Positions 1-59,908 of a stretch of DNA of 64,000 nucleotides are shown piece by piece. The stretch lies in the IMG/VR virus record IMGVR_UViG_3300043464_002149. The stretch is one strand, 5' to 3'. Both the position numbers and the translations under genes were made by a program. The DNA comes from a virus (taxonomy: Duplodnaviria > Caudoviricetes). Numbering within the stretch: the first letter of the stretch is position 1; every line of letters begins with the position of its first letter. The notes below the pieces were generated by a model, which saw only the letters and a program-made list of their open reading frames with translations, ran no database searches and had not been told where the DNA came from.

Positions 1-810
1 TTCTTGAACCATTTTACCTAAACCTTTAATTCCGTTTTGAAAACCATAAGCATTTAAAGCACCTAAATTTTTAATTAAAGTTTCGGAAGTTGCTTTGGCA
101 CTAAGACCCATATTAACAGATCTTTTTCCAATATCTTCAATTGCTCTTGCAGCATCACTTAATCCTAATCCAACATTTCTAAATCCCTCAGCATTTTCTA
201 AAAGTATTCTAGAGTTTTTAGTATATGCCATTGAGGCTTCCATTCCAGCATAAATTGTGTTTTCGCTGTATAATGCCATTCTTTCTGAGTTTACCATTAA
301 ACTTTCAGTAGCATCTATAAAATCATTAACACTTACACCAAGTCTTGTTGTTGCAATCATAGCTTCATTAAGACCTTCTAACATTTGAGTACCAACTTCA
401 CCGACATAACCAGCAGAACCCCTTGTTGATTTAATTAAATCATCTTGTGTTTGTGCTAAATCACTCATTAAAGTTTTTGCGCCATCTAAACCTAAAGCCA
501 GAACATTCTTAACCAATGCAATAGGATTTATTGCCATTGATTTATTTAAACCGTCAATAATACCTTTTACAGTATCAACACTAATTCTAGATTTAGTGGA
601 TGATAATCTATCATAAAACCCTGCAGCTGCAGCATCCCCCACTTTTTTTAATAAATTAGCATCTGGACCCGTAAAACTAGAACTAGAACCAGAACCACTT
701 TTAGCGGCAGCATTTAATCTTTTGTTTAAATAATCATTGATTTCACCAGGTGTATACTTGCCTGATTTTTCAGCTAATTCCCTTACCGCTTGATCTGATA
801 ATGTTGACAT
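1..810 (-). CDS. tail tape-measure-like protein, N-terminal part (runs off the window edge)
   Basis: Not in the ORF track. I read an open frame from ATG at 810 to position 1 (MSTLSDQAVRELAEKSGK...GLGKMVQE). It is helical and Ala/Gly/Ser-rich, and lies downstream of tube and chaperone genes. Confidence 0.65.
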   Translation of the reverse strand, partial: MSTLSDQAVRELAEKSGKYTPGEINDYLNKRLNAAAKSGSGSSSSFTGPDANLLKKVGDAAAAGFYDRLSSTKSRISVDTVKGIIDGLNKSMAINPIALVKNVLALGLDGAKTLMSDLAQTQDDLIKSTRGSAGYVGEVGTQMLEGLNEAMIATTRLGVSVNDFIDATESLMVNSERMALYSENTIYAGMEASMAYTKNSRILLENAEGFRNVGLGLSDAARAIEDIGKRSVNMGLSAKATSETLIKNLGALNAYGFQNGIKGLGKMVQE

Positions 811-842
811 ATTTTATATTAAACTATATAAGAATAAATAGT

Positions 843-977
843 TTAATCATTCTTTTCCATGAAATAACTAATAATACTATTTCTTTCATGTACAGGAAGG
901 ATTAAAACATCATGATATGTAAATCCTTTAGTTAGTAAAAAAAGTATAGATTCAATCTGGTACTTTTTATATGCCAT
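843..977 (-). CDS. short tail-assembly-chaperone 'T'-like ORF (44 aa), probable frameshift extension of the upstream chaperone
   Basis: Not in the ORF track. MAYKKYQIESILFLLTKGFTYHDVLILPVHERNSIISYFMEKND, in the +1 frame overlapping the chaperone 3' end and directly before the tape-measure gene. Confidence 0.7.
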   Translation of the reverse strand: MAYKKYQIESILFLLTKGFTYHDVLILPVHERNSIISYFMEKND

Positions 978-1707
978 AGAAGGGACGAAAAAATTCCACC
1001 CCAAAGTCAACCAAAACAGGGACTTTTTCTCCAGACGGGGCGATTACTTCAACAATTAGGTCAAGACCTGGTTTATTTTCGGATACATATTTTTTGAACT
1101 CTTGAGAATCCCTAATTGGTAAGTTTTGTATGAATTGATAAATCGCCATTTGATCTCTTGTACCATCAACAGACTTAATCATCATCTCCAATCTTTTTGT
1201 GTTTAATGGTGCAATAGTATCTTTACTTGAATCTTTAATTAGTTTTAATTCATTTTCTTGTAAATTAGTTAAAAACTTGAATGTAACTTTTTTCTTAACC
1301 ACGTTCAAAAAGAATTCATATTCACCGTTTGAATCTGCAATTAATTTAAAATCTTTAGTTTTTAAAATAGATAAATCTACAACCCCCTCAAACGATTGTT
1401 TACTAATTGGGTCAACTAAATCAATCTTATATTCGGTACCAAATGCTGTATTTCTTAAAAATATTAATATTGCCTGTCTATCTTCATCTACCAATTCTTC
1501 AATATTCAATTCTTTATCTAAAATCTTTCTTTTTAATAATTCATCAATTACACTATCTGATTGTAGTAAATTTGGTGACATTAATATATTCTCATCTGCA
1601 GCAGTTAGGTATGCTACCCTTAACGATTTTTTACCGTTTGCATAGTGTACACCTTGTGAAGGTAGTTGAACTACGTCATAAGCTACCATTGGATTTATAT
1701 TTTCCAT
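967..1707 (-). CDS. tail assembly chaperone / T4 gp26-like baseplate hub assembly protein
   Basis: ORF track gives 967..1776. A likelier start is MENINPMVAYD at 1707, preceded by TTGATT-17-TATATT. Motifs YDVVQLPSQG, LTAADENIL and DRQAILIFLRNTAFG; position between tube and tape measure. Confidence 0.65.
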   Translation of the reverse strand: MENINPMVAYDVVQLPSQGVHYANGKKSLRVAYLTAADENILMSPNLLQSDSVIDELLKRKILDKELNIEELVDEDRQAILIFLRNTAFGTEYKIDLVDPISKQSFEGVVDLSILKTKDFKLIADSNGEYEFFLNVVKKKVTFKFLTNLQENELKLIKDSSKDTIAPLNTKRLEMMIKSVDGTRDQMAIYQFIQNLPIRDSQEFKKYVSENKPGLDLIVEVIAPSGEKVPVLVDFGVEFFRPFYGI

Positions 1708-1811
1708 AATAATATTTTTGTTATTTCTTTTAATATAACTATAAAACAAATAAAAATCAATGAAACAACGTTCCATGTGGAACTATTGGTACAAATAATT
1801 GATTATCAATT

Positions 1812-1852
1812 AAATAAAAAATCCCACACTCGTTTTTGACGAATATGGGATT
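1812..1852 (-). terminator. intrinsic terminator after the tail tube gene
   Basis: Minus-strand hairpin ATCCCATATTCGT/ACGAGTGTGGGAT followed by a T-run. Confidence 0.7.
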
Positions 1853-57617: not shown

Positions 57618-57651
57618 AAAAAGCCCTCGTTTTAACGAGGGTTTTTATTTT
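57618..57651. terminator. bidirectional intrinsic terminator between convergent operons
   Basis: AAAAAGCCCTCGT-TTTA-ACGAGGGTTTTT. Confidence 0.85.
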
Positions 57652-57671
57652 TGTGCTATTGATAGATAATA

Positions 57672-59087
57672 TTAAAGTATCATTCTTGATCCAATTAAAA
57701 AATTACTTAAAAATGGCGATCCAGCTGCCGTATTACCACTTAATTTGTAATTTATTGTGAACCCAAATCTTTTTGTTATTTTATAATCAAAAGATGAACC
57801 AAGTAAAAAACCGACACTCTTACTTACTGTTGATTCGCCAGTAAGACTATTCCAGGAAATAGGCGCAAACATAGTAAACACTTGTGGTGATATACTTAAT
57901 TTCTTATTATATTGATAAGGTTTTGTCCAAAATGCAACAACAGATGATGACATATTATGATCATATCCGTTATCCATATTTTTAAGCATTAAATTAATTA
58001 TACCAACATTATATCCAAATACCCCATATTTTAGGGTTGGTTTAATATATGTGTAACCCATTAAATTCATGTAATTACCATTTAAATAAGCAAATGCTGT
58101 TGAATATGAATGTATGGCTTTTAGTTTACCATTAGCAAAGTCCATTTTAGTATAACCACCGCTAACTATAAATGTCTTTAAATCGCTCATAATAACAGTA
58201 TTAGCTGAATAACTTTCGTCACCCATTAACGACGATTTAGAAACACCAATTGTTGCTGATTGTAACCATCTACCATCTGGAGATTCTATAACTGATAAAT
58301 CTGAAGATAACAACATCGGATTTGATACAGCCGCTTTTTCTTTTTTCTTTTCTTCCTTTTTCTCTTCCTTTTTTTCTTCTTTCTTTTCCTCCTTAGATTC
58401 TTCTTTCTTTTCTTCTTTTTTAGATTCTGATTTTGATTCTTCTTTTTTCTCCTCACTCTTACTTTCTGATTTAGATTCACTCTTACTTTCAGATTTTGAT
58501 TCCGTTTTAGCCTCTGTTTTAGTCTCAGTTTTACTTTCTGAAGAAGAACTTGAACTAGATGATGATGATGATCCACCAGAGCTTTGTGATGACGAAGATG
58601 ATGTACCACTGCTAGCTGGTGCCGGTGGTGGTGTTGAGGTTGTTGGTGGTGGTGTACTTGAAGCACTGCTTGCAGCTGCGCTACTAGCCGAACTACTTGC
58701 TGCTGAACTTGCAGAACTACTTGCAGCAGATGACGCTGCTGACGATGCCGCACTACTAGCAGCCGCAGAAGCAGCATTTGCAGCTGTTTGTGCCGCAGCA
58801 TTTGTTACTGCTTGTTGTACAACAGGATTATTAATTATAGGGCAAGTAAGAGACTCATATGTCGCTTTAGTAGTTAATAGCCACGCCTGTACAACACCCG
58901 TTTGTACTTCTAACGGTGAAAACGTTCTTATTTGATTATAAAATGAAACAGTTGCATAACCATTAATCATTGTTGTTGTAGCAGTCTTTTTTTCACCACT
59001 ACATTTATCAATGAAAGTTTGTGTATAGGTTTGACCGAACGATTTTATCGAAATAAAAATAAAAATAAAAAATAATATTTTTTTCAT
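57672..59087 (-). CDS. exported protein with low-complexity linkers and a C-terminal outer-membrane beta-barrel-like domain
   Basis: Signal peptide ..KSFG-Q; Ala/Ser, Pro/Thr and Lys/Glu tracts; alternating amphipathic strands ending FLIGSRMIL. Confidence 0.65.
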   Translation of the reverse strand: MKKILFFIFIFISIKSFGQTYTQTFIDKCSGEKKTATTTMINGYATVSFYNQIRTFSPLEVQTGVVQAWLLTTKATYESLTCPIINNPVVQQAVTNAAAQTAANAASAAASSAASSAASSAASSSASSAASSSASSAAASSASSTPPPTTSTPPPAPASSGTSSSSSQSSGGSSSSSSSSSSSESKTETKTEAKTESKSESKSESKSESKSEEKKEESKSESKKEEKKEESKEEKKEEKKEEKKEEKKKEKAAVSNPMLLSSDLSVIESPDGRWLQSATIGVSKSSLMGDESYSANTVIMSDLKTFIVSGGYTKMDFANGKLKAIHSYSTAFAYLNGNYMNLMGYTYIKPTLKYGVFGYNVGIINLMLKNMDNGYDHNMSSSVVAFWTKPYQYNKKLSISPQVFTMFAPISWNSLTGESTVSKSVGFLLGSSFDYKITKRFGFTINYKLSGNTAAGSPFLSNFLIGSRMIL

Positions 59088-59881
59088 TACTTATTATGTA
59101 ATCCAATACTTATTTGATTGAAATTTCTTATTGGATCTCGATCTAATTTTAATGTAAAGAATTTAAAGTCTCTTATTATACCAAATTTAAATGTTGTAAA
59201 ATTGGAATTTGATTTAGGAAATGATATACCTCCAAGCACATCTCTACCTTGGTATCTAATATTCTCATTACCAAATCCAATCATACCATGAACACCTAAT
59301 TTGCCAAATCTTTTCCCACCACCAAGATACAATGTACCTTGTTTAATAAAATCATTATTACTTAATGGGAAATCTACTTCGTTAATTCTACCATATGGAT
59401 AATATTGATTCTGATCAATATCGTAAGACATTGTATAATCTAAAATAAAATATCCTTTTTTTCTCCCTACAGCACCCCAAAAAGATACTTGTTCATTATT
59501 TGTATAACCAAAACCAAAAGTGGTGTAAACAGATTCTTTTCTAATAGTGTCTCTTTTACCATTTTCATATACATGAATTACACTTCTTTGTCTCCAACCC
59601 AAATCGTCATACCAAATGTATGGAAATGGTTGATACCAACCCCAGTTTCCCCAATAGTATCCAAATTGGTTAGGTCTACCCCAATTTTGAATTCTAACCC
59701 TACCACGTGGATCTGGTTGAGGTGAGTTATTTCTCCATCTACTAACATCATTTCTTTGTGGAACAGATGGGGTTATTCTAGGTGTCTCTACTCTTTGTTG
59801 AGGAGGATTATTTCTCCAAGATGAAACTTGACCAAACATAAGTGATGGTACAAGCAATAGCGCTAATAATATAAATTTCAT
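59087..59881 (-). CDS. exported outer-membrane beta-barrel-like protein with an Arg/Trp/Gly-rich N-terminal region
   Basis: Signal peptide ..LMFG-Q; strands YTTFGFGY, LYLGGGKRF, VHGMIGFG, FKFGIIRDF, ISIGLH. Confidence 0.6.
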   Translation of the reverse strand: MKFILLALLLVPSLMFGQVSSWRNNPPQQRVETPRITPSVPQRNDVSRWRNNSPQPDPRGRVRIQNWGRPNQFGYYWGNWGWYQPFPYIWYDDLGWRQRSVIHVYENGKRDTIRKESVYTTFGFGYTNNEQVSFWGAVGRKKGYFILDYTMSYDIDQNQYYPYGRINEVDFPLSNNDFIKQGTLYLGGGKRFGKLGVHGMIGFGNENIRYQGRDVLGGISFPKSNSNFTTFKFGIIRDFKFFTLKLDRDPIRNFNQISIGLHNK

Positions 59882-59908
59882 ACCTTATTGTTTTATTATA
59901 AATATAAA

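Follow-up and report, generated by a model that had tools for sequence, protein, structure and literature searches.

A candidate late-promoter box of virion operons and a gp55-like sigma factor in a large uncultured lake phage

The phage and its relatives

The stretch of DNA analysed here, hereafter the window, is a 64,000-nucleotide sequence from a tailed phage (IMG/VR record IMGVR_UViG_3300043464_002149), in which the heptamer TATTTAT (hereafter the box) recurs ahead of virion genes and a gene at 30839-31537 encodes a sigma factor resembling gp55 of phage T4. With a G+C content of 31-32%, the window carries a T4-like virion gene set that includes the tail tube (1874-2362), tail sheath (2679-5522), major capsid protein (38520-40262), prohead protease (41550-42239), portal (43750-45549) and terminase large subunit (45594-47387). 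Other genes encode a family-B DNA polymerase, a helicase, PhoH, a dUTPase, ribosomal protein S21, Hsp20, a ClpB-like ATPase and an RNA ligase. The open reading frame (ORF) at 1-810 had been labelled as the tape measure in an initial annotation made from the sequence alone, but family searches gave this label no support.

Hundreds of relatives of the window are found in IMG/VR, mostly in lake samples and on contigs of up to 335 kb, and its source is a large uncultured lake phage. Start codons in the window are preceded by A-rich sequence devoid of Shine-Dalgarno (SD) motifs, and comparison of sigma proteins points to Flavobacterium phage immuto as the closest cultured phage. The probable host phylum is Bacteroidota, which lacks SD sequences. 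Comparative analyses were based on 160 related IMG/VR loci, in which ORFs were called and orthologues matched by N-terminal colinearity, on three close relatives (G001-G003), of which G002 is a complete genome of 335,630 bp, and on the complete genomes of two cultured relatives, immuto (NC_055915, 160 kb) and Mel-JY01 (PP395634, 190 kb).

Distribution and conservation of the box

Taken over the whole window, TATTTAT is not enriched, with 44 copies on both strands and 51 +/- 8 in dinucleotide shuffles; the observed frequency, once per 2.9 kb, shows that the chance rate initially put forward (once per 1.5 kb per strand) was about twofold too high. However, 26 of the 44 copies are intergenic, in DNA that amounts to 2,578 nucleotides (nt), or 4% of the window. 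The box was detected in 20 of 40 sense upstream regions, where a first-order Markov model of the same AT-rich regions predicts 2.1, and in 2 on the antisense side (Poisson P = 1.7e-13 for the upstream enrichment; binomial P = 1e-4 for sense versus antisense), and it ranks first among all 7-mers of the sense upstream regions. The enrichment upstream of genes that the initial annotation had proposed is thereby borne out, and all 17 of its box coordinates were found to be correct, each on the strand of the downstream gene. Further sense boxes, absent from that list, occur at 23965, 27273, 31541, 36903, 43789 (internal to a gene) and 5602/5614/5634. The same heptamer is again the top 7-mer in G002, where it was found in 66 of 222 upstream regions (14.3 expected; 10 antisense).

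The box also follows gene class, being present at 8 of 9 recognisable virion operon heads versus 2 of 9 other annotated genes (Fisher P 0.015), and the helicase, DNA polymerase, Hsp20, ClpB-like and RNA ligase genes of the window are devoid of it. A scan of the window for E. coli-type promoters gave 83 matches versus 101 expected, and hence no enrichment.

Among the 160 related loci, boxed genes have kept the box in 83-100% of their distinct orthologous upstream sequences, with the exception of the gene at 23978 (61%), and the orthologous upstream regions of unboxed genes contain it in 0-7% of cases. Ahead of the portal gene, 54 distinct sequences from orthologues with 75-97% protein identity all contain the unaltered heptamer, and the neighbouring bases are variable. 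Chance or base composition as the source of the box is ruled out by a P-value of about 1e-13 combined with this orthologue test.

Boxes of the window

At the left end of the window, minus-strand boxes occur at 834-840, 23 nt before the ATG of ORF 1-810, at 2399-2405, 36 nt before the tail tube gene, and at 5560-5566, 37 nt before the tail sheath gene, which is also boxed in G002. Another minus-strand copy (1853-1859) lies just past the stop codon of the tube gene, ahead of a hairpin with a T-run and 76 nt upstream of a baseplate-hub-like gene (967-1776); transcripts begun at this box would carry a terminator-like structure in their leader. Three tandem plus-strand boxes (5602, 5614 and 5634, spanning 5602-5640) were first counted as antisense but in fact precede an unlisted plus-strand ORF at 5649-5807. 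This ORF, divergent from the sheath gene, encodes 52 amino acids with a ribbon-helix-helix-like sequence, and its G002 orthologue (154598-154753, minus strand; 75% identical) is boxed as well. Its product may be a small, late-expressed DNA-binding regulator.

Further minus-strand boxes precede 7041-7553 (box at 7560-7566, 6 nt before the ATG, within a 52-nt divergent gap), 14145-16244 (16267-16273, 22 nt) and 18963-19544 (19549-19555, 4 nt), the last being the first gene of an operon that includes the virion protein gene 16308-18956. Gene 19558-21006 has its conserved ATG at 21006, 6 nt past the box at 21013-21019 (-), whereas the ATG at 21027 is not conserved. Back-to-back with this minus-strand box is the plus-strand box 21037-21043, located 16 nt before 21060-21791 and found in 33/33 orthologues. 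The other plus-strand boxes are those at 9375-9381, 17 nt before a head-tail adaptor-like gene (9399-10511); 23965-23971, 6 nt before 23978-24529 (17/28 orthologues); 27273-27279, 39 nt before the PhoH-like gene 27319-28032 (21/23), whose immuto counterpart is boxed too; 31541-31547, 5 nt before 31553-31921 (42/45); 35508-35514, 11 nt before 35526-36899 (50/50); 36903-36909, 5 nt before 36915-37358 (19/23); and 42795-42801, 5 nt before the ribosomal protein S21 gene (42807-42998).

On the minus strand, the gene in the scaffold position (40296-41459) is preceded at 20 nt by the box 41480-41486 (34/34 orthologues), and the major capsid gene, which comes after it, has no box of its own. The prohead protease gene has its box at 42263-42269 (23 nt; 38/38), the portal gene at 45555-45561 (5 nt; 54/54), the terminase large subunit gene at 47392-47398 (4 nt; 32/32), gene 50087-51136 at 51171-51177 (34 nt; 22/22) and gene 59087-59881 at 59898-59904 (16 nt). 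As initially annotated, two boxes directly follow a terminator: those at 47392 and 59898 start in the T-tails of minus-strand hairpins whose presence was confirmed at 47402-47425 and 59909-59934, respectively. One minus-strand box (43789-43795) falls within the final codons of the portal gene, with 41 nt separating it from 42995-43747, and was found in 39/41 orthologues. It sits in a 19-nt stretch that is invariant, synonymous sites included, and probably serves as an internal promoter superimposed on coding sequence.

Promoter-like context of the box

Alignment of 22 window sites revealed no -35 or -33 element and nothing common upstream, the information being confined to the heptamer apart from the absence of T at -1 and a preference for A/T at +8. 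A single -10-like box without a conserved -35 is the arrangement of T4-type late promoters. Boxes were also found within two very short divergent gaps of 32 and 52 nt (21006/21060 and 7553/7606). Since both members of such a gene pair require a separate promoter, and nothing but the boxes is conserved in these gaps, the box itself is likely to be the polymerase recognition site. The distance from box to ATG covers a range of 4-41 nt in the window and 2-42 nt in G002, and in Mel-JY01 an SD-like GGAG is found between the box and the ATG, two features arguing that the box is not a translation signal. Altogether, these comparisons support the box as a putative stand-alone promoter element of virion and morphogenesis operons that is gene-specific, strand-specific and deeply conserved.

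All 24 RNA runs found are represented by assembled contigs alone, which cannot show 5' ends and were therefore left unused as evidence. The contigs of four runs, placed on the window, cover the capsid and scaffold genes heavily, with about 13-fold less cover beyond 41672, and in three runs they end at 41376, a position 83 nt inside a gene that marks no start site.

The gp55-like sigma factor and its operon

The gene at 30839-31537 (+), the last of operon 28076-31537, encodes a protein of 232 amino acids. The window copy scores 22.9 bits against Pfam PF04542 (Sigma70_r2; gathering cut-off 24), its orthologue in G003 reaches 26.6, and many homologues that are 82-92% identical to the window protein carry this domain. 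It further matches PHROG family phrog_234 ("late sigma"; E 5e-4), to which T4 gp55 itself belongs, and phmmer identified gp55 as its top sequence match in the PDB (E 0.013). A family profile of 64 members matched SigA region 2 (E 0.003) and gp55 (E 0.046), and hhalign aligned this profile over 112 columns with gp55 (E 8.5e-5, probability 60%) and over 46 columns with the canonical sigma that the phage also encodes (see below). Structural searches with an AlphaFold (AF2) model of the protein (pLDDT 92) placed gp55 first (chain 7d7d_F, Z 10.7 over 117 residues), in a statistical tie with ordinary sigma-2 domains (Z 8-10), and Foldseek returned sigma factors exclusively, at E 0.008 or worse.

The initial description of this product as gp55-like thus stands for about 120 N-terminal residues, which match gp55 in both sequence and fold, but the protein is not a plain gp55, as about 95 extra residues follow at its C-terminus. 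These data support a diverged sigma factor whose nearest solved relative is T4 gp55, the term gp55-like holding for its DNA-reading half. The family is large, with 1,304 clusters at 50% identity. Two distant representatives, P0198 and P0262, were found on contigs of 1.5 and 5.8 kb, the former without IMG/VR relatives.

The sigma gene is itself unboxed, with no upstream box in any of 50 orthologues (0/50). The gap-free operon that it terminates is headed by a bipartite promoter candidate, TTTACT-17-TATCTT (28040-28068, plus strand), situated 7 nt before the ATG of 28076 and conserved in orthologues. The early motif TT(G/T)nnn-17-TATnTT, assigned in the initial annotation to replication and metabolic genes, is weak when considered window-wide (7 sense versus 8 antisense), although orthologues have kept the two instances located ahead of 28076 and 24581. 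A sigma gene that lacks the box and stands behind a conserved element of another type fits a transcriptional cascade.

Directly after the sigma gene is a boxed gene (31553-31921, plus strand) encoding a helical protein of 122 amino acids. A helical gene product of 116-131 amino acids is conserved in this position in the lineages of the window, immuto (L163:28906-29256) and Mel-JY01 (L165:19539-19934). The model of the 122-residue protein is a helical hairpin of low confidence (pLDDT 65), and its comparison with PDB sequences gave no match to gp33, the T4 late co-activator. In close relatives, an acidic variable linker is followed by a conserved [K/N]-[Y/F]-x-[L/I] C-terminus, a layout that resembles a tethered docking peptide.

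Co-occurrence of box and sigma factor across phages

Each of G001-G003 encodes one copy of the gp55-like sigma, together with a second, canonical sigma factor of 269-276 amino acids with clear region 2 (Sigma70_r2, 60-65 bits) and region 4 (44-50 bits) matches. The latter may read elements of the TTTACT-17-TATnTT type. Its gene (L162:1928-2737, corresponding to G002:C1:214427-215236) lies four genes downstream of a ClpP protease gene.

The two cultured relatives provide a means of separating these sigma factors. Both immuto and Mel-JY01 encode the gp55-like sigma (31% and 30% identical to the window protein, respectively), and no Sigma70_r2 or r4 match was detected in their complete genomes. 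Yet the box is the top 7-mer in both, occurring in 16/41 upstream regions of the structural half of immuto, including those of the terminase, portal, PhoH, sheath and tube genes, and in 8/25 upstream regions of the structural region of Mel-JY01. The canonical sigma is therefore dispensable for the box, which pairs with the gp55-like sigma instead. The two phages share with the window phage the sigma family, the small gene after the sigma gene, and a box before the terminase, portal, sheath, tube and PhoH genes; their genomes are smaller and they lack a second, canonical sigma, and Mel-JY01 further differs from the window phage by its SD-like leaders and the absence of a leaderless class. Based on this co-occurrence in three lineages, the box is most likely read by the phage's own gp55-like sigma.

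An unlikely alternative is that the box is a promoter read by another phage factor, either the canonical sigma or an activator recruiting the host holoenzyme, for which the ribbon-helix-helix-like product of 5649-5807 and the 122-residue neighbour of the sigma would be candidates. G001-G003 do possess a sigma with both regions 2 and 4, and the ribbon-helix-helix-like gene is found behind three tandem boxes. Nevertheless, a sigma of this kind should need a -35 element, none of which is conserved, immuto and Mel-JY01 use the box with no canonical sigma in their complete genomes, and an activator is difficult to reconcile with the 32-52 nt divergent gaps, where the sole conserved element has to serve as the polymerase recognition site.

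A different upstream word was observed in immuto between 60 and 78 kb (L163), an early region with many small genes, where TATATTTAG is repeated with AATAATTAAAA nearby. These words, distinct from TATTTAT, occur in 13-19 of the 41 upstream regions of immuto 50-100 kb, and TATATTTAG is probably the mark of an early promoter class. In the literature that was searched, no description of the box, of late promoters in Bacteroidota phages, or of promoter work on immuto or Mel-JY01 was found.

Comparison with T4 late transcription

Late transcription in T4 is the textbook case of a minimal promoter served by a minimal sigma factor. In systems of this type it is coupled to replication and starts about 6 nt past the box, and the co-activator gp33 is bound to the beta flap. 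T4 late promoters, TATAAATA, are read by gp55 with the co-activator gp33 and the sliding clamp gp45 (PMC2988020, PMC7892883; PDB 7D7C/7D7D). Once gp55 has formed the open complex, three adenines (-12, -9 and -8) are flipped out and accommodated in pockets (PMC7892883). The box of the window phage is TATTTAT(A/T) and not TATAAATA, which is not enriched in sense orientation in the window, where ATAAATA is present solely as the complement of the boxes. The initial annotation presented the box as the reverse complement of the T4 element, a statement that is literally true but mechanistically empty. Indeed, when read on the same strand, TATTTATA and TATAAATA are identical at 6/8 positions and differ solely at positions 4-5, so that the box is better regarded as a variant of the T4 late box than as its inversion.

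Both systems have a -10-like box of 8 bp without a -35, at the head of structural operons, and an unboxed sigma gene, and their boxes have in common the adenines at box positions 2 and 6, both of which gp55 accommodates in deep pockets. Unlike in T4, the central AA is replaced by TT, and of the three adenines flipped by gp55 (-12, -9 and -8), the first and third are kept and the second is changed. A similar pattern emerged for the protein from the hhalign alignment: several pocket residues of gp55 are kept in the phage sigma (Y97->Y92, L54->I50, R57->R53 and F86->F81), and residues of the -9 pocket are changed (N13->E13 and H95->Y90), a residue mapping that we infer from an alignment of moderate confidence. 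Box and sigma may represent a variant of the T4 late-promoter/sigma pair.

Other features set the phage apart from T4. Its sigma, with 232 amino acids versus 185 for gp55, has an extra helical C-terminal domain; sigmas of the gp55 family combine a sigma-2 homology domain with a helix-loop-helix and have no sigma-4. At least one third of the boxes lie right against the start codon. Nothing was recognised as a gp33 homologue, though no gp33 profile was run, and the conserved gene of 116-131 amino acids follows the sigma gene instead. Clamp profiles were equally unproductive: PF09116 and PF02916 had no match in G002, and phrog_223 and PF02768 none in G002, immuto or Mel-JY01, although a very diverged clamp, or the use of the host clamp, would escape such searches.

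Comparison with Bacteroidota promoters

In Flavobacterium johnsoniae, promoters of the primary sigma consist of a -33 TTTG and a -7 TAnnTTTG, the latter with near-invariant T-12, A-11, T-8, T-7, T-6 and G-5 and ending 4-5 nt before the start site, and mRNAs are mostly leadered, 87% of them by more than 10 nt (PMC6847099). The box might accordingly be conceived as a variant -10/-7 element for the host primary sigma, giving strong constitutive promoters and no phage-specific late class. The TA at box positions 1-2 and the T at positions 5 and 7 are common to both elements (T-12, A-11, T-8 and T-6), 6/22 sites read TATATTTA in a shifted register, and the spacing to the ATG is compatible with the 4-5 nt rule, a geometry that would suit a leaderless class. 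In contrast to the -7 element, the box has A for T at -7 and A/T for G at -5, thereby violating two of the six positions that are near-invariant in F. johnsoniae (PMC6847099), and it lacks an AT-rich or TTTG upstream partner. The Bacteroidota sequence TAHHTTTG was found in 0 sense upstream regions of the window. The box is also used by a phage recorded on a cyanobacterium, the Microcystis phage Mel-JY01 with its SD-like genes, and two very different host sigmas would then be required to read it; that box and gp55-like sigma travel together over hosts recorded in two phyla counts against the host sigma as the reader. Finally, the box is segregated by gene class, and the operon of the phage sigma is headed by a different, bipartite element. 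Reading by the host sigma consequently appears rather improbable.

Proposed mechanism

The reading that we consider reasonably probable as a whole is that TATTTAT defines a phage-specific promoter class of virion and morphogenesis operons, read by the gp55-like sigma. Under this model, TATTTAT, usually followed by A/T and never preceded by T, would be the core and probably the sole sequence-specific promoter element of a class heading virion and morphogenesis operons along with a few others (PhoH and S21). The phage sigma (30839-31537), transcribed from the different, bipartite promoter at 28040-28068, would be taken up by the host RNA polymerase core, and its gp55-like sigma-2 domain would read the box as single-stranded non-template DNA, as gp55 does on TATAAATA. 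Compared with the late promoter and cognate gp55-like sigma initially proposed, the promoter-like character of the box, its conservation and its association with the sigma family are retained, and the late timing is what we infer.

A corollary concerns the boxes located 4-6 nt from the ATG, which precede nine window genes and 26 of the 66 boxed genes of G002. Transcripts from these would start on the initiation codon or no more than a few bases away, and the mRNAs would be leaderless. The start codons of the nine window genes are supported by codon-pattern conservation, and the spacing in G002 peaks sharply at 5 nt from the heptamer, or 4 nt from the 8-mer. Applied to such close boxes, the 4-5 nt rule of F. 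johnsoniae (PMC6847099) would make the A of the ATG the +1 position.

That the box acts instead in RNA, as UAUUUAU, either as an endonuclease processing site yielding near-leaderless messages or as an S21-linked translation-initiation signal, would agree with the nine close boxes, a host type without SD sequences (PMC6847099), a phage-encoded ribosomal protein S21 and a low-depth RNA-library contig spanning the gap between the terminase and portal genes, but is highly improbable given the boxes that follow intrinsic terminators or lie in short divergent gaps, with no upstream sense transcript to process, the broad range of ATG spacings in the window and G002, the SD-like sequences between box and ATG in Mel-JY01, and the 6/8 identity to a known DNA-level promoter in the presence of a matching sigma.

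Several observations weigh against a phage-specific late class read by the gp55-like sigma. Some boxed genes are non-structural, such as PhoH and S21 in the window and GroES and the ribonucleotide reductase beta subunit in immuto. Residues 138-232 of the sigma form the extra C-terminal domain of about 95 amino acids, with weak sigma-4-like matches (Z 5-6), and a sigma-4 would normally imply a -35 element, none of which is seen. With no gp45-type or beta-type clamp detected, clamp-dependent activation is unsupported and the T4 mechanism may not apply. The pairing of sigma and box is a co-occurrence in three lineages, and in a 484-kb phage (LR756508) with a member of the sigma family the box was found in 1/29 upstream regions within 20 kb of the sigma gene, with no enrichment, though this region may not be late. 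As for the leaderless corollary, at the commonest spacing of 4 nt a strict T4/sigma-70 geometry would put +1 one or two bases inside the ATG.

A bolder extension, which we regard as doubtful, is that the gp55-like sigma and the adjacent small protein form a clamp-independent late module of a very large family of aquatic phages, whose Bacteroidota-infecting members would be positioned for leaderless late mRNAs, the translation of which the phage S21 would favour over that of host messages.

Significance

Box and sigma belong to an abundant, mostly uncultured family of large freshwater phages, and the box offers a simple genomic marker of putative late genes for hundreds of uncharacterised phage genomes. 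A related sigma that would read a box altered at exactly two bases constitutes a natural experiment on sigma-2 pockets and -10 specificity, and boxes abutting the ATG provide an entry to leaderless translation in a phylum without SD pairing. The cultured phages immuto and Mel-JY01 open these questions to bench work.

A possible operator of the phage chaperone genes

A distinct pattern was observed in the divergent gap 52739-52834, which separates the Hsp20 gene (52330-52758, minus strand) from the ClpB-like AAA+ gene (52835-54874, plus strand) and contains no TATTTAT. The words ATGTCTAA and TTAGACAT are repeated there as inverted repeats, an arrangement suggestive of an operator to which a regulator dedicated to the phage chaperone pair would bind.

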